Shown here: positions 1 through 14,161 of the stretch, piece by piece
How the letters are laid out: the number at the start of each line of letters is the position of its first letter
Position numbering within the stretch: the first letter of the stretch is position 1
NCBI GenBank assembly: GCA_017454465.1
Contig: JAFTCY010000127.1
Location: 1 to 59,906, forward strand
DNA from: Clostridia bacterium
Lineage (GTDB): Bacteria; Bacillota; Clostridia; Oscillospirales; CAG-272
Direction of reading: 5' to 3'
Length of the DNA: 59,906 nt
The notes under the pieces: model-generated
What the model saw: only the letters and a program-made list of their open reading frames with translations
Databases searched by the model: none
Told to the model about the DNA's origin: nothing
Made by a program: the position numbers and the translations under genes

Positions 1-551
1 ACGACGGGCATGCCGTCGGTCTGTGGTGAAAGTCCACAAGGGGCGTAGTTGCCAACGAACCCCAAAGCGACTCCCAAGGTTTACACCGTGAGGTATAGGC
101 GAGAGGAAGGGATAGCGAAATCGTAGCCTTACGAACAGAAAACCCAATATCAAGGCGTATGCGGCGGACGAGTGGGCCAGAAGTCACGAAGTCCAAAAGG
201 CAACCGTAACCCGTATGCGTAGATTGAGAGGGTAGACGAGGAAAGACCGGAGGCTTATCCCGTGAGATCTCACGAGCGGAGAAATCCGTAGTAACAACGA
301 ATCGTGAGAAGTCAGCATAAGCCATAGTACCGAGAAATCGGGAAGGGCTGAACGGTTCAACTTATCGTTAGAAGATGTAATGCGTATGCTCGATATGAGG
401 AATAGCCGAAACGTATATGAGGCAAAACGAAGGAAGTCGTAGAGCAAAAGCGCAAAAGCGTTGAGACAAACGAGGAGAAGAACCGAACCGCCGTATGCCG
501 AACGGCACGTACGGTGGTGTGGGAGGGGGAATTCATTTCCCCCTACCCGAT
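1..551 (+). mobile_element. Group II intron RNA, 3' portion; the 5' end lies outside the window and no intron-encoded protein ORF is present in the 550 nt seen
   Basis: Domain V at 488-517 reads CCGCCGUAU-GCC-GAAC-GGC-AC-GUACGGUGG. It has a 9-bp lower helix, CGC at the catalytic-triad position and a 2-nt AC bulge on the 3' strand. A 3-nt linker (UGU) follows. Domain VI at 521-548 pairs GGGAGGGGGAA with UUCCCCCU(A)CCC, leaving a single bulged A545 6-8 nt from the presumed 3' end. The upstream 480 nt is purine-rich, dense in stop codons in all + frames, and has domain-I-like strings (ACGAACAGAAAAC at 131-143). A small GCGC-AAAA-GCGU hairpin sits where domain IV would be. Confidence 0.6.
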
Positions 552-1440: not shown

Positions 1441-2201
1441 AGGAAGCGGACATGGAGAGAAAACCGGTAAAGATAAGGCTGAAGTCACGCCAGACACTGG
1501 GATACCAGGTCTGCAAAGGGCTTGTGCCGACAGACGTATCATCAGTATTGAGAAATCTGTATTCTGATGACGAGGAGGATTTTTACCCGGATCTTTTTGA
1601 AAAAGAGCATTACGCACCTGAATACCACCCGCAGGAAACAGACGAAGCGCTGGACGGTGTGCTCGACCTTGAAGGAATAGACATCGGCCAGTCTCTTGCC
1701 GACGGATGTGAAGATGAGCTCCTGGATGAGGTAGAATATGGACAGGATGCGGTGGAACAGTTCAGGGACGTGCTTGAACAGATAAAAAGACAGCTTGAAA
1801 ACGAAGATGATGACACGGAAGAGTTTTCTTACATTACAACGGGATTTATAGAAAGCGGGAACCTTGACAGCGGAGAGCAGTACACGGAGATATCATTCGC
1901 GGAAAATGAAAGCCTGGGCGGGACATTAACGAACATCAGATTTTTCGCAGGCGAAAAGCCGAGAGTCGAGATCAGTCATTCCGGCGGGGTGGATTCTGTC
2001 CTTGAATGCGTGGAGAAAAGGAGGTACAGGAACTCGTACCGGACGCCTTTCGGTCCGATGGAGTTCGCAATGTATACCCGCAGATGCAGGGGAAAACTTG
2101 AGTATCCTACCGGCGGAAGGCTCGAACTTGACTATTTCGTTGAGATCAAGGGACTTGACGCGCAGAGAACATGTATTGAGATAGATGTTTTGCCGCAATA
2201 A
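1437..2201 (+). CDS. DUF1934 (YwiB-like beta-barrel) domain protein with an acidic N-terminal extension
   Basis: The C-terminal ~130 aa (YTEISFAENE...TNIRFFAG...VEISHSGGV...YRTPFGPMEFAMYTRR...LELDYFVEI) matches the DUF1934 pattern. The N-terminal ~110 aa is D/E-rich. It has an ATGA start/stop overlap with the upstream gene. Confidence 0.55.
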   Translation: MKEADMERKPVKIRLKSRQTLGYQVCKGLVPTDVSSVLRNLYSDDEEDFYPDLFEKEHYAPEYHPQETDEALDGVLDLEGIDIGQSLADGCEDELLDEVEYGQDAVEQFRDVLEQIKRQLENEDDDTEEFSYITTGFIESGNLDSGEQYTEISFAENESLGGTLTNIRFFAGEKPRVEISHSGGVDSVLECVEKRRYRNSYRTPFGPMEFAMYTRRCRGKLEYPTGGRLELDYFVEIKGLDAQRTCIEIDVLPQ

Positions 2202-2212
2202 CCGAAAAAGAG

Positions 2213-2234
2213 AAAAAAGGCGTAAGCCTTTTTT
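2213..2234. terminator. Bidirectional intrinsic terminator between convergent genes
   Basis: AAAAAAGGC-GTAA-GCCTTTTTT: a hairpin flanked by an A-run and a T-run, lying between the DUF1934 stop and the uvrA stop. Confidence 0.7.
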
Positions 2235-2243
2235 CTTTCTGGA

Positions 2244-5075
2244 TCATTTCCTGAGTTTTTCCTTCAGGTATAACCCTGTGTATGAGCCGGGGATCATGGA
2301 AACCTCCTCCGGCGTGCCCTTTGCTATCACAGTGCCGCCCGCATCTCCTCCCTCGGGACCCAGATCAATTATGTAGTCCGCACATTTTATGACATCAAGG
2401 TTGTGTTCGATGACAACGCATGTGTTCCCTGCGTCAACAAGGGATTGAAGTATGCCTATGAGTTTGTCCACATCAGCGGAATGAAGACCGGTCGTCGGTT
2501 CGTCAAGCACATAGATCGTCCGGCCCGTCGCCCGCTTTGAAAGTTCCGTTGCCAGCTTTACTCTTTGAGCTTCGCCTCCGGAAAGAGTAGTTGAAGACTG
2601 ACCTATCTTTATGTACCCCAGACCGACCTGGCAAAGCAGCCTCAGCCTGTTTGCAATCTTTGGCACATCTTTGAAGAAATCAGCTCCTTCGTCCGCGGTC
2701 ATTTCCAGAACGTCAGATATGCTTTTTCCTTTGTACTTGACCTCAAGAGTTTCACGGTTATACCGTTTTCCGTGGCAGACGTCGCAGGTCACATACACAT
2801 CCGGGAGGAAGTGCATCTCGATCTTTTTGACACCGTCACCCTGGCATGATTCGCAGCGTCCCCCTTTTACATTGAAAGAGAAACGCCCGCTGTTATATCC
2901 CCGGATCTTGGCTCCCTGGGTGGAAGCAAACAGATTCCGGATGTCAGTGAACAGTCCCGTATAGGTGGCGGGATTAGAGCGCGGGGTCCTTCCAATAGGG
3001 GACTGGTCAATGGCGATGATCTTGTCGAGGTTCTCGGCTCCTTCGATCCTGTCATGGTCTCCGGCGATCGTAAACGCACGGTTCAGGGAGTGGGCAAGGG
3101 ACTGATAAAGGATCGAATTGACCAGAGAAGACTTGCCGGAACCGGAAACGCCGGTGACACATACAAAGCAGCCAAGTGGGAATTCTACGTCAATATTTTT
3201 CAGATTGTGTTCCCTTGCGCCGACTATTTTCAACATTTCTCCGGTCCCGCTCCTTCTGCGCTCCGGGACTTTTATTGATCTTCTGCCGGAGAGGTAGTCC
3301 CCGGTTATTGAATTTGTATTTGCTGCAACTTCAGCAGGGGAACCGCATGCAACGACTTCTCCGCCGTGTATCCCCGCTCCCGGGCCTATATCGATCACAT
3401 AGTCAGATGACATGATGGTTTCTTCATCGTGTTCGACGACAATTACCGAGTTGCCCAGATCTCTGAGGTTTTTCAGAGTTTTTATCAGCTTACTGTTGTC
3501 TCTCTGGTGGAGGCCTATGGAAGGCTCGTCAAGAATATACAGGACACCCGCGAGGGAAGATCCTATCTGGGTAGCCAGCCGTATTCTCTGAGCCTCTCCT
3601 CCGGAAAGAGTCGCTGATTTCCTTGAAAGCGTCAGGTAGTTCAGGCCTACGGACTCCAGAAATCCCAATCTGCTCTTCAGCTCTTTCACTATTTCCCTGG
3701 CGATCACTTCACCTTCAGCCGAAAAATGCAGGGATTTAGTGAATTCAAGGGCATCAGAAACTGATAAAGAACAGAATTCGTGTATGTTTTTCCCTCCTAT
3801 GGTAACGGAAAGGATCTGTGGGTTTAGGCGGGCGCCGTGGCAACTGGGGCAGTCGCGCTCTGACATGAACTGGGTGTAATATTCGTATTCCCATGCTCCG
3901 GGCTGCGCTCTCTTTTCTATCATTTTAAGCAATCCCTCAAAAACGACGGACTGGGTCTGGGTCCTGTTGCCGAAACTGCGGGTGATGTTGCATGGGTCCG
4001 GGTCTCCGTTCAGCAGGATATCAAAAGCAGCGGGGGGATAATCACAGAGGGGCGTATCGAGGCTGACACCATGTCTTTCCAAAGCGCATCTGAACAGCGG
4101 ACCGTTCCAGCTGTCTTCTGTAAGAGATTTGAATCCGTTTACCGCTATGGCCCCTTCCGCCAGGGACAGTGACAGGTCAGGGATTATTTTTCTCGGGTCT
4201 GAAGTCATAAGCACTCCCAGTCCGAGACATTCAGGACAGGCGCCGAAGGGATTGTTGAAAGAGAACGCTCTTGGTTCCAGATCGCCGAAACTGATTCCGT
4301 GTTCGGGACAGGCGTAATTTGTCGAATACTCGTTTTCGACAGGTTCGGAGCCGTCATTCGGCACGGTGGCGCATATGACGAATCCGTCGGACTCTCTGAG
4401 TGCGACTTCTACCGAATCGGTGATTCTGCCTTCAGCTCCCTGCTTTATGATAAGACGGTCTATGACAAGTTCAACAGTGTGCCGAAGATTTTTGTCAAGA
4501 TCAATATCCTCAGTCAGATCATAAATGATTCCGTCGATACGGGCTCTGACATAGCCGTTTCTTTTTGCGTCGGACAGAACTTTTTCCTGCCGGCCTTTTT
4601 TTGCTCTGACCACGGGTGAGAGGATCATGAATCTTGTTCCCTCAGGCATTGACATAATGCTGTCTACGATTATATCCGTGGAAGACTGCTTGATCTCCCT
4701 GCCGCAAACAGGACAGTGAGGCGTTCCGAGACGGGAATATAAGAGCCTTAGATAATCATATATTTCGGTTACTGTTCCAACTGTCGAACGGGGGTTTTTT
4801 GAAGTTGTTTTCTGGTCGATCGAGATGGCGGGGGAAAGCCCCGTAACCGAGTCAAGATCCGGCTTGTCGAGCTGACCAATGAACATTCTTGCATACGAGG
4901 AAAGTGATTCTACAAATCTTCTGTGACCCTCGGCATACAGTGTATCAAAAGCCAGTGAAGACTTTCCGGAGCCGGAGAGGCCGGTCAGTACCACCAGCCT
5001 GTCACGGGGAATGTCCACGGAGATATTTTTCAGGTTGTGCATGCGCACACCGCGAAGAGAAATCTTGTCCGGCAT
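2244..5075 (-). CDS. uvrA: Excinuclease ABC subunit A
   Basis: [50 protein letters not shown], a second ABC module ([14 protein letters not shown]), LSGGE signatures, CxxC zinc modules, and canonical length (943 aa). The start is set at ATG 5075, with a GGGAG RBS 7 nt upstream. Confidence 0.95.
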
Positions 5076-5076
5076 A

Positions 5077-7296
5077 TTATTCTCCCAATTGAGTAATGAA
5101 GTCATGAACTCTGAGATCAAGCTCGTCTGTTCTTAGTTTGTCTTCCGCATATGCTTTCCTGAGCAGTTCTGAGGGTATGAATTCATCGAACTTTTCAAAA
5201 ACCGGAGACTCGGAAGGGCCGATCAAAGATGAACGGTCTATCCCTTCCCGGATTATGTTGTTCGAAAGATCCCTGAGCATATTCACGCCGCTTCCGCCTT
5301 CAAGCTTGAAAGTCATGTAATAGCATCCTTCGTATTCCATTCCGGTCAGTTTATACTTTCCGGCGTATTTGGAAAGATACCTCCTCAAAGTTCGGAAACT
5401 GCGGGTGCCCAGCCAGGGGAAAAGAGCCCAGGTATAACCGCCTAGATGGAGGATAGGTTTCTGGCATACTCCGGTATTACGGGCTACAGCCCGGGCAGTA
5501 CGCAGTCTCTCCAGAGCCTGCTTGTGGAGATAGGGGTATTCAGTATCCTCACAGAGGACCTGTTTCATTCGTTCAAGGATCCTGGTGTGGACCTCGCCGT
5601 AGTCGCCGGGCCAACTGACTTCCATTTTTCCCTCGACAGGCATGACATATATAAGATGACGGGGTATATCCAGTTCTTCCACCTGCCAGACTCTGCCGGC
5701 AAGGGCAAATCTGTCGCCAACAGGCGGAGGGGTGGTGATGACACCTATCTCCCCGGACTCGCACCTGACAGTGAAGTCCTCAGTATCCTTGAATACAGCA
5801 TAAAACTTGAAGGAGTTTATGAGTTTTTCGCCCCTCAGCCCGATAATAAGCTCTCCGTTCTCTGTCAGTTCCAGCCAGTCATGGTTGATCATTGAGACCA
5901 GCAGCAGCCTGTAATCCTCTCTGTCTACATGGGCAAACGGAGGGAGGCTGAGAATCATCTCTGCCAGGGCAGCGGGAGAAAGAGCCCCGCTGGACGCTAT
6001 TATCGAAAGGGTCTGGTGAAACATGAGCGAGAAGGGACACTTCTTTGTGACCGGAGGTTCTATGAACCGGTCTTCTATGTAAAGCTGCACGATGGCAATG
6101 GCTTTGAGCAGCTCCCACGGTATAAGTTCCGGAAGAGGCGCGTTGGGCAGGGGATTTTCTTCCCGGAAGACCATGAGCATTTCCGGCGGATCTCCTCTTC
6201 TTCCGCTTCTGCCCAGCCTTTGCAGAAAAGAAGACACAGAATTAGGGGAACCCTGCTGTATTATCCGCTCAAGTTTCCCGATGTCTATTCCAAGTTCCAT
6301 GGTCACGGTGGCACAGGTTACGGCGGGGATCGAATCATCCTTCATCTTCATTTCCGCTTCTTCGCGGATACTTGCTGAAAGAAATCCGTGATGAATGAGA
6401 AAGATGTCAGGCTCGCCTCTGTATCTTGCTATTTCCCTTAATGTTGCGCAGACATATTCTGTTTCTTCTCTGGAGTTTGAGAAGACTATTGACTTCTTTC
6501 CAACCGCGGAATCGTAAATGTATTCATATCCCATGTCCATATGCATGGTTTCCGAGGGGGTCAGTTCGGAAGACGGCAGAGATGCCACATCCTTGCTCAT
6601 TATGTAAAAATGCTCCATGCCCAGACGCCATCGGAGTTCGGTTTTCGGAACTTCAGGAACAGTGGTCGATCTTCCGCTTCCGGATTCGAGCCATCCTGCC
6701 GCTTTTCCGACATCGCCCACGGTGGCGGACAGACCTATCCTTCTCGGGTATACCCCGGTCTTCCTCTGCAGTCTGGAGAGCAGGCAGAGGATCTGGTTTC
6801 CGCGGTCTGTTCCGGTGAGAGTATGGATCTCATCGATGACGATGTACCTCAGATCTCCGAACAGCCTTATCAGATCAGATGACCGGTTCATCAGCATTGA
6901 TTCAAGGGACTCCGGCGTTATCTGGAGGATCCCCGCCGGGTGTTCAAGAGCCTTGGCCTTGTGGGACTGGGCTACATCGCCGTGCCAGTGAAAGACCGGG
7001 ATACCTGCATCTTCGCAGATCTGGGTGATCCTCAGGAACTGGTCATTGATCAGTGATTTGAGCGGCGCGATGTACAGGGCTCCGAAAGAAGACGGCATGT
7101 CTTCATAAAACTCGGAAAGGATCGGGAAAAACGCGGCTTCGGTCTTTCCGGAAGCAGTCCTTGAGTGAAGGAGGAGATTGTTGTTTCCGTAAAAGATCTC
7201 ATGAGCCGCTGCGACCTGGACGGGCCCGAGGGCCTCCCATCCGTGGGAATAGATGTATTCTCTGATAAATGGCGAGTAGGATTCAAATACTGACAT
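5077..7296 (-). CDS. sngC: Lhr-like DEAD/DEAH-box SF2 helicase, the SngC-like component of a Shango-type system
   Basis: Helicase motifs TASGKTEAA (I), DEIH (II), SAT (III) and QRLGRSGRR (VI), plus a ~300-aa C-terminal region like the Lhr 'DEAD/H-associated' extension. It is the third gene of the TerB/ATPase/helicase operon. Confidence 0.75.
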
Positions 7297-7318
7297 GGCG
7301 TATCCTTTCGAGAAAGAT

Positions 7319-8710
7319 CTAGAACGTTATGTCTTCAAGAGTCACTTTTCCGTTTTGTTGGCTGTTTTGACTGACGGACGCAGGAATGGAACTCTGGGGT
7401 GTCCTGCTGTCATATGCAGCTGTGCTGATCTGCGGGTTGTCGGCTGCTGTTCGTTTGATGTCTGCATAAGACAGATCCCGGTTTGTATAAAGAAGATCCA
7501 ACAGGGTCACATAGTCTCTTATAATCTCTCTTGGGGTGATCATCGTTCCTGCTCCTTCTCGCTTCAGGGAAGTTGCAAGAAAGTCATTCATTTCTTCTTC
7601 CGTGAGCCCGGGCTCCCATGCATGGTATTCGCCGTGAAGAGAAGTAAGTCTTATGATCAATGCCAGCATTTCAGCATCGGAAAGACGCTTCAGTCTCAAA
7701 ACAGGCTGCATCAGGGAGCGGTATTCACCTCCGCCGAATCGTCCGTCTGCCAGTCTGCTCCTCAATGCTTCATAGCTGTACAAGCCACGTCTTGTATCCT
7801 CAAGGAACTGGGGCGTTCCGCCGAACACGATCATTAAGCCCGGCGCCCTCCCCTGCATCGTGTCGTTGAACATAGACAGGATCTTTTCATAGTTGTTTTC
7901 ACGGGAGATTCTGTTCGGTATCTTGTACAGATTGACACATTCGTCGATGTAAAGGCACAGGCCGCTGTAACCGGCCAGCCTGAAGAAAGAAGTGAAAAGC
8001 TTCAGGTAATCATACCAGTTGTCATCGGTTATGATGGTTACCGACCTGATCCCGAGGCCCTGGCGGGCTTCGGTCCTCGTGGAGTACTCTCCCCGGAGCC
8101 ATTTCAGACAGGCGGACTGTCCGGAATCATCGCCGTCGCTCCAGGAAGTGTAATATTTTTTCATGACTGCGGCAAAGTCAAAGCCTCCGATGTCAGACTC
8201 AAGCGATCTGAGGCTGGCTGATATTCTTTTCGTGAATTCGTCTGTATATTCCTGCCCGTTTCTGTCAAGCCCTTCGTCTTCAAGCTCGGATGCTATGCTT
8301 GTGAACCACTTGCCTATGATGACAGGCAGAGCACCGCCGTCGGGAGAGGTCTTGCATGCGAGATTTTTCATCAGCTCACGGAAAGTTGCGAGTCCGTACA
8401 TTCCGCTGCCCGCAAGCTTCCGTTCAGGAGAAAGGTCACAATCCGCAGTAACGAACCCCTTGTCAAGAGCATACCCTCTCGCAAGCTGAATCAGAAAGCT
8501 TTTCCCGGAACCGTAACGACCGATAATGAATTTCGTGCTTCCTTCACCTTCGGCGACTCTGTCCAGTGCATCGGCAAGTGCCTGGATCTCTTCTTTCCTT
8601 CCGATGGCTATATACGGAGCTCCCATTCTGGGAACGACTCCCCCTGAAAGAGACGAAAGCAAAGTGCCAAGGATTCTTTTGGGTATCCTGTTTAATACGT
8701 TTGAAGCCAC
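7319..8710 (-). CDS. sngB: DUF2791-type P-loop ATPase, the SngB-like component of a Shango-type system
   Basis: Walker A GRYGSGKSF and Walker B LCLYIDEC. Size (463 aa) and position match the DUF2791 ATPases paired with TerB-N/TerB-C proteins. GTG start with a GAAAGGAA RBS, overlapping the upstream gene by 19 nt. Confidence 0.7.
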   Translation of the reverse strand: MASNVLNRIPKRILGTLLSSLSGGVVPRMGAPYIAIGRKEEIQALADALDRVAEGEGSTKFIIGRYGSGKSFLIQLARGYALDKGFVTADCDLSPERKLAGSGMYGLATFRELMKNLACKTSPDGGALPVIIGKWFTSIASELEDEGLDRNGQEYTDEFTKRISASLRSLESDIGGFDFAAVMKKYYTSWSDGDDSGQSACLKWLRGEYSTRTEARQGLGIRSVTIITDDNWYDYLKLFTSFFRLAGYSGLCLYIDECVNLYKIPNRISRENNYEKILSMFNDTMQGRAPGLMIVFGGTPQFLEDTRRGLYSYEALRSRLADGRFGGGEYRSLMQPVLRLKRLSDAEMLALIIRLTSLHGEYHAWEPGLTEEEMNDFLATSLKREGAGTMITPREIIRDYVTLLDLLYTNRDLSYADIKRTAADNPQISTAAYDSRTPQSSIPASVSQNSQQNGKVTLEDITF

Positions 8711-10548
8711 TCTTCGATTTCCTTTCTGTAATCTTCAACGAGATTGTAGGAGATTCCGGCCGGATCCGGCTCTATGATTACATCTCCGAGAATGTCAAGG
8801 AAAAGGCTGTTCACGGTGTCAGCCATGTTTCCCTCATTAAGTCCGTTTTCGCGGCAGTACAGAGAAAACTCGCTGTCGAGAGCCGCGCGTATCGCGCCTT
8901 TTGTGGTTATATCTGCGTCACTGTTTTCCGTGCATACGGCTTTCCCGGTTTCGAAAATGAAGTCTCCGGAAGAAACGGCGCCCTCGGGATTCTCGTCAGC
9001 CGCGCCGCATTCCGGGTCATTGGACGTGAGATCCTCGCCGGTCAGCCGCTCGGTATTCGTCCATGATGACTGTTCAAGTTCTGCCGCAAGTTCATAATCG
9101 TAACCGCTGGACTCGGGCTCATAATACTCCATGTATTCAGGCTCCTTCTGCTTCGGATCTCCTGTAAGCGGGTAGATTGTGTTCAGGGTTTCATACAGAC
9201 AGGCTTGTATCCCGGCCTGCAACGGCTCTGTCTTGAGTTTTGACTTTATCCCGAGCACAGATCTGAGGCGGTTTTCGCATTCTTTTACAGCAGACGTTAT
9301 TACCTGGCGTGATTCAGCTCTTCTTGTGAAGGAGAGAAAACTCAGGTCGATCCGCATCCTGATACCGGGAGCGACCATGGCTCCGCTGTAGCTCTCTCTT
9401 GTTATGGAGTAGAACCGGTCCAGGCTGAGCGGAGCCGCGGAATCCGCGATGGCTTTGACTATGAATGCACCGACAAGATACGGCAGTTCCGAGTCATAGA
9501 AGGCTTTGTTGGGCATATAACATTTTGACTGTGTATAGTCATAATCAGACAGGGTTTCCGCAATGGCCCTGCCGAGAAGTGAAATGTTCTCTTTTTCTCC
9601 GTTCTTGGCCAGAAGGAGCAGTGGATGAATATAAAACTCTTTGAACTGTGACTTGGGGACTATACTGGGGATAAAAGGCAGAAGGGATTTCGGCAGGGGG
9701 AGCTCATGGATAAGGCAGTAATCAGCCATCCATTCACCCAGAAATCCGTCAAGTCTCGGGTAAGTGCCCCGGTAAGCAAGCCACAGCGAGGAGAGTATGC
9801 GGACACCCTGCTGTGGAGGGATCAGATCGGGAAGGTTGATCACTTCGTATATGTAGAGTATGATATACGGAAGGTCTGCCGCAGGGAAAAGCCCTTTTCT
9901 GACTTCCTCGCGCCATGCTCTGTAAAACTCTATCTGCTGGCTGTTCATATGTGAGAACTGGGGGATATATGACTGGAAAGGAACAGGGGACAGAGAAGCG
10001 AACTGTTTTACCGGGGAAGAACGGTGGCTCTGGGCTACATCCCGTGAAAAATGACTGTAAGCACTGTCCACGGGCCTGGACCTGATCGTGGCTGAGGAAA
10101 GAAGGCCCTCGTGATAGAAGCTGTATTTTCTGACTACCGAATCTTCCTTTTCAGGAATAGCATCATGATCAACCGAAACAAGCCTTCTCGGTGCCTCTGG
10201 TATTTTCAGAGAGCCCTTTTCCGGGATAGGTTCCGGCCGGGCATTATCGGTTTTTGATTCGGCTATACTTATGTCATAGGTGCCGGGGGGTGTTTCAAAA
10301 TCCGGCTTTCGGTATTTTTTCTCCTTTGGAGGGCCGAGATACCAGAAACCGTCCTCGTTCGCGTTTCCGCGGTCAGCGCCCGCTTCTTCGTCGGCAGATC
10401 CCGCCGGAACAGTGGCTGAGGTCGGAAAAAGGCCTTTGATCTCGGCAACAGTTTTCCGAGCTTCTTCAATGTTGCCCTCGTCGAGTTTTGCCTGCAGTTC
10501 CGATAATAGATCAGATAAAGCACGCATTACGTCACTGCTGTCTGGCAT
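8692..10548 (-). CDS. sngA: TerB-N / TerB-C domain protein, the SngA-like component of a Shango-type system
   Basis: The central block SYIPQFSHMNSQQIEFYRAWREEVRKG...LPYIILYIYEVINL is a TerB-N-like signature. The C-terminal NSLFLDILGDVIIEPD...YNLVEDY is TerB-C-like. GGGAGG RBS 9 nt before ATG 10548. Confidence 0.7.
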   Translation of the reverse strand: MPDSSDVMRALSDLLSELQAKLDEGNIEEARKTVAEIKGLFPTSATVPAGSADEEAGADRGNANEDGFWYLGPPKEKKYRKPDFETPPGTYDISIAESKTDNARPEPIPEKGSLKIPEAPRRLVSVDHDAIPEKEDSVVRKYSFYHEGLLSSATIRSRPVDSAYSHFSRDVAQSHRSSPVKQFASLSPVPFQSYIPQFSHMNSQQIEFYRAWREEVRKGLFPAADLPYIILYIYEVINLPDLIPPQQGVRILSSLWLAYRGTYPRLDGFLGEWMADYCLIHELPLPKSLLPFIPSIVPKSQFKEFYIHPLLLLAKNGEKENISLLGRAIAETLSDYDYTQSKCYMPNKAFYDSELPYLVGAFIVKAIADSAAPLSLDRFYSITRESYSGAMVAPGIRMRIDLSFLSFTRRAESRQVITSAVKECENRLRSVLGIKSKLKTEPLQAGIQACLYETLNTIYPLTGDPKQKEPEYMEYYEPESSGYDYELAAELEQSSWTNTERLTGEDLTSNDPECGAADENPEGAVSSGDFIFETGKAVCTENSDADITTKGAIRAALDSEFSLYCRENGLNEGNMADTVNSLFLDILGDVIIEPDPAGISYNLVEDYRKEIEEWLQTY

Positions 10549-10590
10549 TGACCGTTACCTCCCATTTGTCGAAAAATACCTTGAAAGATT

Positions 10591-10619
10591 ATTATATCAT
10601 CCGTGTTTTTTTGTGTCAA
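10591..10619 (-). promoter_or_regulatory. Consensus sigma-A promoter of the sngABC(-uvrA) operon
   Basis: On the minus strand: TTGACA (10619-10614), a 17-nt spacer, then TATAAT (10596-10591), about 40 nt upstream of the sngA ATG. Confidence 0.7.
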
Positions 10620-10814
10620 TCTTTCGGAATGACAAAACTATGAGAACTGAATGGAAAAACGTATATATTACTGGCAGACGGACAGAACGGAGGATCGAAA
10701 AAAGGTCACTCTTTTTCTCACAGCGTGGTTGTGATATAATAAAAAGCGAAGTAAACAGGGATCCGAAAGCGGGCGGTCACTTCCGTCCTGCTTTCAGTCA
10801 GTGGGAGGAGCGCC

Positions 10815-11216
10815 GTGTTTTTCAAAAAGGAAGAGGTAAAATCTTTTGATGCAGTTACGCTTCGGCTGAGCGGAATGAGGTTCACATGCGAATACGAGAT
10901 CATTAACAACGAGGATATGGCTGATATTTCCAGGTATGACATCCGTTATATCGAAAAAGGCGAGACACGCGTCCCGACAGGAACGGTAAAGGTACCGGTG
11001 GAGGAAATGATAAGAATGCTGAACAGCTGTAACGTTATCAGATGGGATGGGTTTTTCGGTTCCCACCCCAAAGGGGTAAAGGACGGCATCATGTTCCGGT
11101 TTTCTGCCAGGATAAACGGAAAGGAAATAAAGGCTGACGGCTCTGAGAATTTTCCGAAAGGTTTCCGCGAGTTTCAGGCATATATACAGGATTCAATGAG
11201 AGGACAGGAAGAATAA
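10815..11216 (+). CDS. Hypothetical protein (133 aa), no recognisable domain
   Basis: GTG start preceded by a GGGAGGAG RBS (10803-10810). A possible extended -10 (TGATATAAT, 10732-10740) lies upstream. No motif recognised. Confidence 0.45.
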   Translation: MFFKKEEVKSFDAVTLRLSGMRFTCEYEIINNEDMADISRYDIRYIEKGETRVPTGTVKVPVEEMIRMLNSCNVIRWDGFFGSHPKGVKDGIMFRFSARINGKEIKADGSENFPKGFREFQAYIQDSMRGQEE

Positions 11217-11292: not shown

Positions 11293-11321
11293 TTGACATG
11301 AAAAATCTTTCATGATAGAAT
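11293..11321 (+). promoter_or_regulatory. Sigma-A promoter of the T-box leader
   Basis: TTGACA (11293-11298), a 17-nt spacer ending in TGa, then TAGAAT (11316-11321). Confidence 0.7.
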
Positions 11322-11323
11322 CT

Positions 11324-11587
11324 GCGCATACTGAAGAACGCAGTGACGGAGAGCAATACCGAGAAGATGTACAGAGAGTTGCCGGGCGGTGAAAGGCAAT
11401 ATCGATGCGGTTAACACTCACTCCGGAGCGGCTGCCCGAAATGCCGTTGGCAGAGTAGACGCAGACGGGACCGACCGTTATATCGGAAAGGCATGATAGT
11501 GCCTGAAAAAAGGATACGAATGTATCGAAGAAGAGTGGTACCACGAGGTTTACACCGCGTCTCTTTGTAAGAGAGACACGGTTTTTT
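11324..11587 (+). promoter_or_regulatory. T-box riboswitch (tRNA-sensing transcription attenuator), probable Leu specifier CUC
   Basis: Elements read in order:
- K-turn: CGC-AGU-GA-CGGAG paired with CUCCG-GA-GCG.
- Specifier loop 3' side: UAACA-CUC-A (CUC at 11417-11419).
- AG bulge: AGAGAG (11372-11377).
- Distal loop: GGGCGGUGAAA.
- F-box: CCGUUA (11475-11480).
- T-box sequence: AGAGUGGUACCACG, with UGGU at 11536-11539 implying discriminator A73.
- Terminator at 11555-11587: an 11-bp stem plus U6, mutually exclusive with the antiterminator. Confidence 0.85.
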
Positions 11588-11611
11588 GTTTTTTCTGGAG
11601 GATAGGTATAT

Positions 11612-14161
11612 ATGAAAATTTCATTTTCCACACTGGGATGTCCGGATTTTTCATGGATAGACATTTGTTCCATGGCCAAGGACTTTGGGTTTCAGGGAAT
11701 TGAGATCAGAGGCCTTTCAGGAGAAGATATATTCAAACTGCACAAATCTCCGTTCAAGCCTGAGAACATAGAAGCGACCCGAGAACAGCTGAAACGGCAG
11801 AAACTGGAGATCAGTTGCTTTTCAACAGGGTGCTCGCTGGGATACCGTGACAGACGGGACGACAATATGAGGGAGATCAGAAAGTACATCGACCTTGCAA
11901 GATATTTCAAGGTTCCGTACGTAAGAGTGCTGGGAGAGCCGTCCGCAGAGCCCGAGATGCAGGTAGATGACGACTTTGTCGTGGAACAGATGAAGGATCT
12001 CGCTCCCATTGCTGAGGAGGCTGGGGTGATAATCCTGCTGGAGACCAACGGCGTGTACTCGGATACCGCCCGCCTTTCGGATGTTCTCGCGCGGGTGGGA
12101 AGCGACAATGTGGCAGCCCTGTGGGATTTCAACCATCCCTTCCGCTTCAACGGTGAAATGCCCCAGACTACGATCAATAATCTCGGGGCATACATAAAAC
12201 ATATACATATCAAGGACTCTGTGGTTGAAGACGGGAAACTTATATACAAGCTGGTCGGGGAGGGAGACCTGCCTCCTATGGCTGACTATATGAAGGCGCT
12301 TTTATCACTCAACTATGAGGGATATGTTTCTCTCGAGTGGATGAAGCAGTACGCTCCGGATCTTTCCGACCCGGGTGTGGTGTTTCCTCATTATGCCCAT
12401 TTTATGTCAATGTACCTTGGCGTGCCGGAAAGCAACGCCAGGCTGATTCCAGACAACCGGGGCGAGGGCTACTATGTATGGCCGAAAGAGCAGCTGATCG
12501 ATCTGACCATGCCTCAGGTACTCGACCGCATGGTGGAGGAATTCCCGGACCGCTATGCTTTTCGGTATACGACATGTGACTATACAAGGACATGGAGCGA
12601 ATTCAGAGACGATGTGGATCTGTTTGCGCGCTCGCTGATCTCGCTCGGCGTAAAGCAGGGCGACCATGTAGCCATTTGGGCGACCAATGTTCCGCAGTGG
12701 TATATCACTTTCTGGGCCACTGTCAAGATCGGCGCCGTGCTCGTTACAGTAAATACAGCATACAAAGTCCATGAAGCCGATTATCTGCTCAGGCAGTCCG
12801 ACACCCATACCCTTGTTATGACCGACGGATACAAGGATTCTGACTACGTAAAGATCATGAACGAGATAGTCCCGGAACTGAAGGACAATGAAGATGAGAA
12901 CGGTGTTGTTAAACCTTTGCACTGCAGACGCCTTCCGTTTTTGAGAAATGTGATCACGGTCGAGTCGAAGCATAAGGGGTGCCTGACCTGGTCAGACGCG
13001 ATCGAGGCTGCTCAGAGGACACCCATGGACGCGGTATACAGAAGAGCAGCGATGATAAACAAGCATGACGTTTGCAATATGCAGTATACCAGCGGAACGA
13101 CCGGATTCCCGAAGGGAGTCATGCTTTCCCACTATAACGTCGTCAACAATGGAAAAGCGATTGGAGACTGCATGGATCTGTCTACTGCTGACAGAATGAT
13201 GATACAGGTCCCGATGTTCCATTGTTTCGGAATGGTCCTTGCCATGACAGCTTCCATGACGCACGGGGTCACCATGTCTCCGATTCCCGCTTTTTCGCCG
13301 AGACTGGGTCTTGAGTGTATCGACCGTGAGAAAATAACGGCTTTTCACGGGGTACCCACCATGTTCATAGCCATGCTCGGCCATGAAAACTTCAGCAAGA
13401 CCGACTTTTCACATATGCGTACCGGAATCATGGCGGGCTCTCCGTGTCCGATCAAGGTCATGGAGGAAGTGATTCAAAAGATGCATATGCCGGAGATCTG
13501 TATAACCTACGGCCAGACGGAAGCGTCTCCCGCGACCACCATGTCAAAGACGACGGACTCGATCGAGACGAGGGTGAATACAGTCGGATCGGCGATATTC
13601 GGCGTGGAATGCAAGATAGTGAATCCCGAAACAGGAGAGGACTGCCCTGACAATGTAGACGGCGAATTCGTTGCCCGCGGGTACAACATAATGAAGGGAT
13701 ACTACAAAATGCCTGAGGCGACATCTGTTGCCATCGACAAAGAGGGGTGGCTTCATACGGGGGATCTGGCGAGACGCCTTCCGGACGGGAACTACAAGAT
13801 CACCGGGAGGATAAAGGACATGATCATCCGCGGAGGAGAAAACATTTATCCAAAGGAGATAGAGGACTTTATCTATACGTATCCGAAGGTCCAGGACGTG
13901 CAGGTAATAGGCGTTCCCGACAAAGCATACGGCGAGGAAATAATGGCGTGCGTTATTAAGAAACCCGGGGAGGATTGTACGGCGGAAGAGATCAGGGATT
14001 ATGTCAGGGAACACATGGCAAAGCATAAAACACCGAAATATGTCGTGTTTGTCGACAGTTTCCCGATGAATGCGGCGGGAAAGATACTGAAATACAAGAT
14101 GAGGGACGATGCGAAAAAGCTTCCCGAATTCCGGGAAGCGGCGGGTATCGTAACTGCGTGA
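11612..14161 (+). CDS. Fusion protein: N-terminal xylose-isomerase-like TIM-barrel (sugar phosphate isomerase/epimerase family) domain plus C-terminal AMP-dependent acyl-CoA synthetase
   Basis: Residues ~1-270 (MKISFSTLGCPDFSW...GFQGIEIRG...ILLETNG...HIHIKD...SLEW) fit the AP-endonuclease-2/xylose isomerase-like barrel. Residues ~300-849 carry adenylate-forming motifs YTSGTTGFPKG, GYNIMKGYY, TGDLARR and IIRGGENIYPKEIE. GGAGG RBS. Confidence 0.8.
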   Translation: MKISFSTLGCPDFSWIDICSMAKDFGFQGIEIRGLSGEDIFKLHKSPFKPENIEATREQLKRQKLEISCFSTGCSLGYRDRRDDNMREIRKYIDLARYFKVPYVRVLGEPSAEPEMQVDDDFVVEQMKDLAPIAEEAGVIILLETNGVYSDTARLSDVLARVGSDNVAALWDFNHPFRFNGEMPQTTINNLGAYIKHIHIKDSVVEDGKLIYKLVGEGDLPPMADYMKALLSLNYEGYVSLEWMKQYAPDLSDPGVVFPHYAHFMSMYLGVPESNARLIPDNRGEGYYVWPKEQLIDLTMPQVLDRMVEEFPDRYAFRYTTCDYTRTWSEFRDDVDLFARSLISLGVKQGDHVAIWATNVPQWYITFWATVKIGAVLVTVNTAYKVHEADYLLRQSDTHTLVMTDGYKDSDYVKIMNEIVPELKDNEDENGVVKPLHCRRLPFLRNVITVESKHKGCLTWSDAIEAAQRTPMDAVYRRAAMINKHDVCNMQYTSGTTGFPKGVMLSHYNVVNNGKAIGDCMDLSTADRMMIQVPMFHCFGMVLAMTASMTHGVTMSPIPAFSPRLGLECIDREKITAFHGVPTMFIAMLGHENFSKTDFSHMRTGIMAGSPCPIKVMEEVIQKMHMPEICITYGQTEASPATTMSKTTDSIETRVNTVGSAIFGVECKIVNPETGEDCPDNVDGEFVARGYNIMKGYYKMPEATSVAIDKEGWLHTGDLARRLPDGNYKITGRIKDMIIRGGENIYPKEIEDFIYTYPKVQDVQVIGVPDKAYGEEIMACVIKKPGEDCTAEEIRDYVREHMAKHKTPKYVVFVDSFPMNAAGKILKYKMRDDAKKLPEFREAAGIVTA

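Follow-up and report, generated by a model that had tools for sequence, protein, structure and literature searches.

In the region 2,244–10,619 of a 59,906-nucleotide (nt) stretch of DNA, the window of this analysis (contig JAFTCY010000127.1, assembly GCA_017454465.1, Clostridia bacterium, CAG-272), the genes of a complete and intact Shango-family module, sngA, sngB and sngC, lie directly upstream of uvrA and form with it one apparent four-gene operon, sngA-sngB-sngC-uvrA, on the minus strand. Shango consists of the TerB-domain protein SngA, the ATPase SngB and the DEAD/DEAH helicase SngC (10.1101/2022.05.11.491447; 10.1101/2022.11.11.516204), and an anti-phage activity is predicted for the module of the window. 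With moderate confidence, we favour the reading that a bona fide Shango-family module with an SOS-type promoter became fixed directly upstream of uvrA in an Oscillospirales ancestor and was from then on passed down with it as a single operon, so that module and uvrA would be coupled through their regulation. A Shango module that is located on the core chromosome, inherited vertically, equipped in relatives with a LexA-type operator and placed in an operon with uvrA is a new form of the known Shango system.

The PADLOC models identify all three Sng proteins, and for each of them the Shango model outscores the related model of BREX (bacteriophage exclusion). Specifically, the genes for a TerB-type SngA, a BrxD-type SngB and a DEAD/DEAH-type SngC are adjacent, co-directional and in the order A-B-C; known systems comprise the same proteins, arranged and oriented alike, and the ATPase and helicase motifs are intact here. 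This composition had been proposed in a sequence-only reading of the same DNA, which had named profile searches as a possible refutation of its protein assignments; the assignments came through these searches, with two domain labels trimmed. SngA matches Pfam TerB_N (expectation value, E, 3.6e-14) and PADLOC SngA (6.8e-35, spanning profile positions 52–527 of 528). The earlier label of a TerB-N/TerB-C protein therefore stands in its first half, while TerB_C was not detected by profile search in the SngA of the window, though it was seen in 11 of the 13 aligned relatives, and the C-terminal motif is conserved (SngA alignment A1, on which the N-terminal motif given below is also based). SngA is thus a TerB_N protein with a diverged TerB_C-like C-terminus and a disordered, hypervariable N-terminus and linker. 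The disordered residues about 1–110 (window 10340–10548, minus strand) vary strongly in length and sequence, and the N-terminus carries a short conserved motif, D-[DG]-F-W-x-L ... K-x-Y-x-x-P, which is common to uvrA-linked and unlinked Shango and could be a docking peptide.

SngB is a BrxD-family P-loop ATPase, as shown by its matches to Pfam BrxC_BrxD (2.5e-143) and PADLOC SngB (1.4e-155); the former family is the one formerly called DUF2791, the name under which SngB had first been labelled. Its Walker A motif GRYGSGKS occurs in every full-length relative (GKYGSGKS in L084). Sequence searches of the PDB with SngA and with SngB returned no match. Membership of BrxC_BrxD is shared with BrxD of BREX, and SngC also matches the PADLOC BrxHI|BrxHII model (8e-126). 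The Shango models, however, score far above the BREX ones, SngB reaches 160 bits against NCBIfam BrxD (cut-off 350), and no PglZ, PglX or BrxC was present among the about 30 larger open reading frames (ORFs), a part of those in the window, that were scanned with Pfam or NCBIfam models.

SngC matches Pfam DEAD and Helicase_C and the PADLOC SngC model (2.1e-238). It is an Lhr-like DExH superfamily-2 helicase with the motifs ASGKT, DEIH, SAT and QRLGRSGR intact in the window, and DEIH and QRLGRSGR are invariant across relatives. The closest solved structures by sequence are Lhr (5v9x, 1.5e-28) and MrfA (6znp, 2.8e-28), at about 20% identity. An AlphaFold model of SngC (mean predicted local distance difference test score 68.7) finds Lhr 5v9x as its best PDB match (E 6.6e-20; template modelling score 0.54 over the full length), and 6znp at 1.1e-18. 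Against the NCBIfam Lhr-type and ligase-associated helicase models SngC scores 205 bits for TIGR04121 (cut-off 850), 177 for PRK13767 (cut-off 849) and 94 for PRK09751 (cut-off 1496); since it stays far under all Lhr equivalog cut-offs, "Lhr-like" is correct and "Lhr" is not. Of the earlier description as an Lhr-like DEAD-box helicase, the DEAD and Helicase_C domains were retained and the "DEAD/H-associated" Pfam domain was not detected; the predicted fold best matches the Lhr core. The DExH motifs of SngC are common to Lhr and MrfA (YprA); its partners, in contrast, are a TerB protein and a BrxD ATPase, not MrfB or a ligase.

The layout of the four genes (Table 1) fits a single transcription and translation unit, as had been suggested. 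sngA shares 19 nt with sngB, a gap of 22 nt lies between sngB and sngC, and the sngC stop codon (TAA, 5079–5077) is followed after one base by the uvrA ATG (5075–5073), with the GGGAG of uvrA inside sngC; the four ORFs and all these junctions are exactly as first described. The perfect promoter that had been placed ahead of sngA ranks best among 16 promoter-like sites found in the region. Across 11 diverged loci (promoter alignment A3), TGnTATAAT is invariant and the -35 element nearly so, the exception being TTGCAA in L093. No credible promoter or terminator was found between sngC and uvrA, in agreement with the sequence-only reading: the single promoter-like match there (9/12, 5105–5076) cannot yield a translatable uvrA mRNA because its -10 abuts the ATG, and the weak terminator-like hairpin nearby (5446–5427) lies inside the sngC coding sequence and belongs to a class that is as frequent in shuffled sequence (14 found vs 9.7 expected). 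The strong terminator 3' of uvrA (2236–2211) had not been mentioned before. The GTG start of sngB is supported because residues 9–28 of SngB (IPKRILGTLLSSLSGGVVPR) are conserved in all relatives, and the 447-amino-acid (aa) gene calls in public assemblies are therefore too short. An alternative uvrA start, TTG at 5120, would give 958 aa; the N-terminus counted from the ATG is the canonical UvrA start. The guanine-plus-cytosine content is 0.50–0.52 in the sngABC-uvrA block and 0.45–0.49 in its flanks; this computed value bears out the lack of a compositional break previously judged by eye. The operon is set among core chromosomal genes (infB, nusA, RNase R and sugar ABC transporters). No other defence or mobility families were matched among the scanned ORFs of the window, in keeping with the earlier remark that no integrase or transposase is to be seen.

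Relatives of the window were collected as loci (numbered L) by a UvrA scan of GTDB species representatives, from which the best 80 UvrA loci (identity to the window UvrA <=79%) were taken; all of these come from metagenome-assembled genomes of uncultured gut Clostridia or Oscillospiraceae. Further block-bearing loci were added through exact-protein look-ups and a metagenome scan, and the latter, queried with SngC, gave 4 loci only. The comparison covers the uvrA/sng neighbourhoods, e.g. 18.5 kb at L011, so that each genome is seen as a locus. About 16 further loci from uncultured gut Oscillospirales, distinct from one another in sequence, also have the block: it is found in L087, L088, L002, L004, L006, L007, L009, L025, L085, L091, L093, L094, L096 and L099, with partial copies in L001 and L008. 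It is common to two sister lineages of these bacteria, and in the clade closest to the window sngABC directly upstream of uvrA replaces uvrB. The sngC-uvrA spacing ranges in most loci from an 8-nt overlap (L087) to 60 nt, with outliers of 454 nt (L085) and 1575 nt (L004, whose spacer contains inserted GNAT and PIN/antitoxin-like ORFs). L011 carries sngA-sngB-uvrA (2160–8513), with 71 nt between sngB and uvrA and sngC absent throughout the 18.5 kb available; its closest Shango relative, L099, carries the full sngABC-uvrA.

The four genes have diverged together. Pairwise distances of UvrA correlate with those of SngA, SngB and SngC (Mantel r 0.88–0.93, p = 2e-4), and in the L006/L007 pair the synonymous divergence (dS) is equal, about 0.52, for sngB, sngC and uvrA. 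The ratio of nonsynonymous to synonymous divergence (dN/dS) over three pairs is 0.017–0.054 for SngC, 0.020–0.068 for UvrA, 0.035–0.10 for SngB and 0.07–0.16 for SngA, and SngA is 67% identical where UvrA is 90% and SngC 93% identical. The uvrA-linked SngC proteins are monophyletic in 197 of 200 bootstraps. The block is found between flanks of at least five kinds (acyl-CoA ligase/PHP, galK/acyl-CoA ligase, comM-like/GH20, araC/DUF1643 and mazE-like/epimerase), so the four genes remained together while their surroundings were repeatedly rearranged. All these comparisons indicate that the sngABC-uvrA arrangement is old and mostly vertically inherited, not a recent insertion, and that the Sng proteins and UvrA co-diverged under purifying selection. 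A recent island insertion was rejected, as there is no compositional break, no mobile or defence genes adjoin the block and the block co-diverges with uvrA. The earlier suggestion that a defence island had captured the promoter-proximal position fell for like reasons: no island is present, the window is core chromosome and the arrangement is old and mostly vertical.

Several relatives carry extra genes inside the module. Between sngB and sngC we observed an APH-family kinase in L004 (4331–5257), a GNAT-like ORF in L083 (8614–10000), a metallophosphoesterase-like ORF in L089 (1840–2742) and 1.36 kb of unannotated sequence in L097 (8637–10000); the GNAT and PIN/antitoxin-like ORFs of L004 (7600–9174) lie between sngC and uvrA. 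These variable genes look like the occupants of a cargo slot inside the Shango module.

The uvrA product (943 aa) looks like a canonical class I UvrA of the ordinary housekeeping type. It scores 1455 bits against NCBIfam NF001503 (cut-off 1147) and 1388 bits against TIGR00630 (cut-off 730), matches Pfam UvrA_inter (2.3e-35) and UvrA_DNA-bind, and contains two Walker A motifs, two LSGGE motifs and the CxxC pairs; the claim of a canonical-length uvrA as the fourth gene of the operon is borne out. In class II UvrA the UvrB-binding domain has been lost. In the linked UvrA proteins this domain is constrained as normally, the ratio of domain to whole-protein identity being 0.93 in the sng-linked clade vs 0.89 in uvrB-adjacent genomes. 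The linked UvrAs form one clade with unremarkable branch lengths and without clade-specific fixed substitutions, and the sole clade-specific indel is a one-residue deletion in the insertion domain. uvrB is absent from the window, as had been noticed (tblastn, best E 0.38), and it lies within 10 kb in no block-bearing locus. In the related genomes retrieved, uvrB-uvrA or a solitary uvrA is usual: about 56 of the 80 best UvrA loci gave a UvrB match, whose gene immediately precedes uvrA in almost every case, so uvrB-uvrA is the common state, and uvrB had rightly been called the usual partner. No assembly occurs twice among these 80 loci.

Two further roles for uvrA or its neighbours were set aside. 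A defence-module paralogue is not supported: UvrA passes the equivalog cut-off, nests among organismal UvrAs, has normal branches and lacks clade-specific substitutions. SngC as a substitute for UvrB has against it the absence of UvrB similarity anywhere in the window and the constraint still acting on the UvrB-binding domain of UvrA. Additionally, the C-terminal ABC module of UvrA (residues 619–937, window 2244–3220, minus strand) matches two PADLOC models of the MADS defence system, mad3 (2.3e-99) and mad8 (1.3e-38). ATPases resembling UvrA are thus already known as parts of a defence system, and these models can also be triggered by a bona fide UvrA. In L081, a public metagenome contig otherwise near-identical to the window, a frameshift near residue 600 breaks uvrA into ORFs of 631 and 330 aa (4645–7486); either the assembly is wrong at this point or the strain carries uvrA as a pseudogene.

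The promoter region of the operon points to a regulatory link. Upstream of sngA, about 10 nt past the conserved TGnTATAAT, relatives carry ACGAAC[GT]AATGTTTG, a motif that matches the C. difficile LexA operators of uvrB (AGGAACTAATGTTCGA) and lexA (AGGAACAAATGTTTGC) validated by surface plasmon resonance (PMC4234289). The sngA-promoter motif, including ACGAACTAATGTTTG, is probably a LexA site (Cheo box; pattern tested, GAAC-N4-GTT[TC]). Among the 93 loci searched, 6 contain its 14-mer ACGAAC[GT]AATGTTT, each a single time and always upstream of sngA. The operator was seen in L002, L011, L025, L085, L091, L093, L094, L096 and L101, and as the variant AAACTAATGTTC in L099; the tally is 9/14 linked loci and 1/5 unlinked loci (L101). 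It is decayed through substitutions in the window and in L087, the closest relative; in L006 and L007 it is half-decayed, and L004 lacks it. Downstream of its sngA promoter the window contains no Cheo box, so the operator by which SOS-regulon membership is judged was not found there. Two candidates in the window were discarded: GATCCTCCGTTC, with one mismatch, sits upstream of the -35, and the sole perfect match to CGAACNNNNGTTYG lies inside nusA, the number of matches being equal to the chance expectation.

A like promoter-plus-box layout stands ahead of solitary uvrA in the sister lineages (L012, L013, L014, L066, L026 and L038) and ahead of uvrB in more distant Firmicutes loci (L069 and L070). 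The same operator type, GAACTAATGTT[TC], joins the sngA promoter of relatives to the LexA-controlled uvrBA operon of C. difficile (operator AGGAACTAATGTTCGA at -30; PMC4234289), in which likewise the operator lies just downstream of a sigma-A promoter and uvrA is the distal gene. The difference is that here sngABC replaces uvrB as the promoter-proximal cargo and the operator is decayed in the window. L101 retains the operator though tex, not uvrA, comes after sngC; the operator thus goes with the sngA promoter and does not strictly depend on uvrA being there. No Cheo box was found upstream of uvrB in the closest uvrB-adjacent relatives. These box-less uvrB genes and L101 weaken the explanation that the operator was merely inherited from an ancestral uvrBA promoter. 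By its resemblance to known operators, the motif thus points to a regulatory link between Shango and uvrA in most relatives, decayed in the window.

The linkage is not obligate. L097 and L098, nested in the main SngC clade, carry sngABC followed by apbE-miaB-ylbF-mutS-mutL without uvrA, and in L101 sngABC likewise stands without uvrA, the linkage having been lost. Conversely, in L012 and L013 uvrA stands alone behind a promoter and box of its own, without sng genes, and their UvrAs are closest to that of L099 (84–85%). L010 and L059, in the main UvrA clade, have their own promoter <100 nt upstream of uvrA; no sngC coding sequence was found in the 226–263 nt available upstream, and these two loci are probably sng-less. 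Shango triads at 64–70% SngC identity occupy other contexts, without uvrA, in related genomes. Neighbour-joining trees of the Sng proteins do not resolve the main clade and L011/L099/L101, in which Shango is linked to uvrA, as sisters apart from unlinked systems (support 1–44%); the host UvrAs of these two clades, however, are sister lineages.

In the reading that we favour, the ancestral state would be an SOS unit: DNA damage, or the activation of RecA when a phage infects or a prophage is induced, would cause LexA to be cleaved and Shango and UvrA to be co-induced. In the lineage of the window and L087, expression would probably be constitutive from the consensus extended -10 promoter, since the operator is decayed in both. 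Translation of uvrA is probably coupled to that of sngC, with a 1-nt spacing in the window and an 8-nt overlap in L087. Shango may act alone as an ATP-driven DNA-tracking machine comprised of an Lhr-type 3'-to-5' translocase and a BrxD-type ATPase, with the fast-evolving TerB protein SngA as its sensor or adaptor. UvrA would carry out excision repair with a UvrB encoded elsewhere, and the coupling of Shango and UvrA would be regulatory and positional, not an obligate physical partnership.

Several points weigh against this reading. The operator is absent from the window itself, and the SOS part of the model therefore applies to the relatives and the ancestor, not to the window sequence; LexA binding is predicted from likeness to operators validated in another genus. 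The single transcription unit is a prediction from gene layout and signals, and a promoter-like 10/12 match inside sngC (6287–6260) could also drive uvrA. That UvrB is encoded elsewhere in these genomes and that uvrA is single-copy are assumptions, as neighbourhoods and not genomes were compared, and all the relatives are metagenome assemblies. The trees do not separate a single origin of the linkage, followed by losses, from two independent ones, and the latter case would speak for a functional link. Defence systems are not usually inherited vertically or held under such strong purifying selection, and both features would also suit a housekeeping role. Finally, the anti-phage activity of Shango has been shown only in proteobacterial systems, of E. 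coli and P. aeruginosa (10.1101/2022.05.11.491447; 10.1101/2022.11.11.516204).

Other readings of the same evidence would give the adjacency more meaning, or less. A functional link between the module and excision repair had been the other suggestion of the sequence-only reading. In such a case SngABC and UvrA could be direct partners in one pathway, in which, e.g., UvrA senses damaged or modified DNA and hands substrates to SngB/SngC, besides or instead of UvrB, for repair or for attack on phage DNA. Such a partnership would fit the co-inheritance of the four genes across deep divergence while their flanks changed, the tight or overlapping sngC-uvrA spacing in most loci, the promoter with an SOS operator, the linkage in two Shango clades unresolved as sisters and the retention of sngA-sngB-uvrA in L011 after loss of sngC. 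It would also fit the nearest characterised relatives of SngC, Lhr and MrfA, which are DNA-damage helicases, and the UvrA-like ATPases known in a defence system through mad3. However, the module and uvrA have parted in L097/L098 and L101 with sngABC still intact, the sng-less L012 and L013 (and probably L010 and L059) keep a normal uvrA with its own promoter, and related Shango triads occur in contexts without uvrA. UvrA itself shows no clade-specific substitutions, one single-residue indel and a normally constrained UvrB-binding domain, and proteobacterial Shango works when cloned alone, though its hosts had their own UvrA (10.1101/2022.11.11.516204). We therefore consider direct partnership unlikely. 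Rather unlikely, in our judgement, is the proposal that Shango here is one arm of the DNA-damage response, with UvrA recognising damaged, modified or abnormal DNA, of phage or host, and recruiting or activating SngB and SngC through SngA as adaptor. If true, UvrA as the sensor of a Shango-type system would offer the first mechanistic handle on Shango; the mode of action of TerB-domain defence proteins, including SngA, was described as still unclear in 2025 (10.1101/2025.09.30.679545).

The triad could also have been exapted, so that in this lineage it is no longer, or never was, anti-phage and serves instead as a housekeeping, SOS-induced DNA-processing or repair module. According to the sequence-only reading, earlier comparative genomics had predicted such a role for the triad. 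Vertical inheritance, a dN/dS of SngC equal to or below that of UvrA, the core-chromosome setting without adjoining defence or mobile genes, the LexA operator at the promoter and the Lhr/MrfA-like helicase all agree with this, and the proteobacterial homologues, in contrast, reside mostly on conjugative plasmids. We nevertheless regard it as quite unlikely, since SngA is hypervariable and evolves 3–6 times faster than its partners, as expected under phage conflict, presence and absence of the module vary within the lineage (L012/L013, probably L010/L059), accessory genes are inserted in it (APH, GNAT and the PIN/antitoxin-like ORF pair), and all three proteins match the Shango models best, above the BREX models. 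The adjacency might finally be a neutral lock-in without adaptive meaning: the module would have landed between the promoter and uvrA and would persist only because its deletion would leave uvrA without a promoter, or else uvrA would be served by an unseen promoter of its own. In favour of this, spacers of 454 nt (L085) and, with inserted genes, 1575 nt (L004) show that the block can do without tight coupling, a separate promoter directly precedes uvrA in L010 and L059, and synteny in several loci extends to the acyl-CoA ligase neighbour. Neutrality, however, leaves unexplained the strong purifying selection on all three sng genes and the conserved operator with its consensus promoter; precise loss is evidently possible (L012/L013), yet the block is kept in most lineages. 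This explanation, which overlaps with the favoured one and differs from it chiefly by denying a benefit of co-regulation, is in our view very unlikely.

Described Shango systems are located in variable defence hotspots or islands (10.1101/2022.05.11.491447; 10.1101/2022.11.11.516204), and we found SngC homologues at 34–48% identity on 720 plasmids, mostly conjugative. Unlike the described systems, the module of the window is core-chromosomal, vertical and strongly constrained and shares an operon with uvrA, with a LexA-type operator in relatives. Our literature search found no paper naming Shango together with UvrA, and the papers naming both Shango and LexA draw no connection between them. 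Here, many species have inherited a Shango module jointly with uvrA, selection constrains the module no less tightly than UvrA, and most relatives have a LexA-type operator ahead of it; this points to DNA damage or RecA activation as the trigger of Shango, and to excision repair as a possible partner. This comparative evidence provides a testable lead on the trigger and partners of Shango. It also provides an example of a defence-type module turned into fixed, core-like cargo of a repair operon, contrary to the usual picture of rapidly exchanged islands, and bears on how "defence system" calls in gut metagenomes are read.

Table 1 Genes and control signals of the sngABC-uvrA operon, in window coordinates
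Feature	Position	Strand	Details
Consensus sigma-70-type promoter	10591..10619	-	TTGACA, 17-nt spacer with TG extension, TATAAT; 12/12 match
Operator position, decayed in the window	10570..10586	-	reads TTTCAAGGTATTTTTCG (alignment A3)
sngA	8692..10548	-	618 aa
sngB	7319..8710	-	463 aa, GTG start
sngC	5077..7296	-	739 aa
Shine-Dalgarno GGGAG for uvrA	5082..5086	-	within the final sngC codons, 6 nt 5' of the ATG
uvrA	2244..5075	-	943 aa counted from the ATG
Intrinsic terminator closing the operon	2211..2236	-	11-bp stem, 4-nt loop, T-run

Further elements were observed near the operon. At 82–551 (plus strand), just upstream of a PHP/histidinol-phosphatase-like ORF, lies a group II intron-like RNA (Rfam RF02001, 99.5 bits; RF01998, 44.3; RF00029 domain V/VI, 45.9) with no room for an intron-encoded protein and a 5' end that may be truncated by the edge of the window; the corresponding regions of L087, L094 and L096 gave no match to it. 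On the other side of the operon, the spacer of about 1 kb between the sngA promoter and a T-box leader contains two overlapping ORFs on opposite strands (10794–11216), of 90 aa (minus) and 133 aa (plus), which have no family match and are common only to the near-identical contig L082. The T-box leader itself (11334–11567, plus strand) reaches 86.3 bits (E 4.6e-19), slightly short of the gathering score of 93, and its region (11293–11611, plus strand) includes a TTGACA-17-TAGAAT promoter-like site (11293–11321) and a terminator-like hairpin (11559–11577). It precedes the gene of an 849-aa fusion of AP_endonuc_2, a xylose-isomerase-like TIM barrel, with an AMP-binding acyl-CoA-ligase domain (11612–14161), an unusual target for a T-box.

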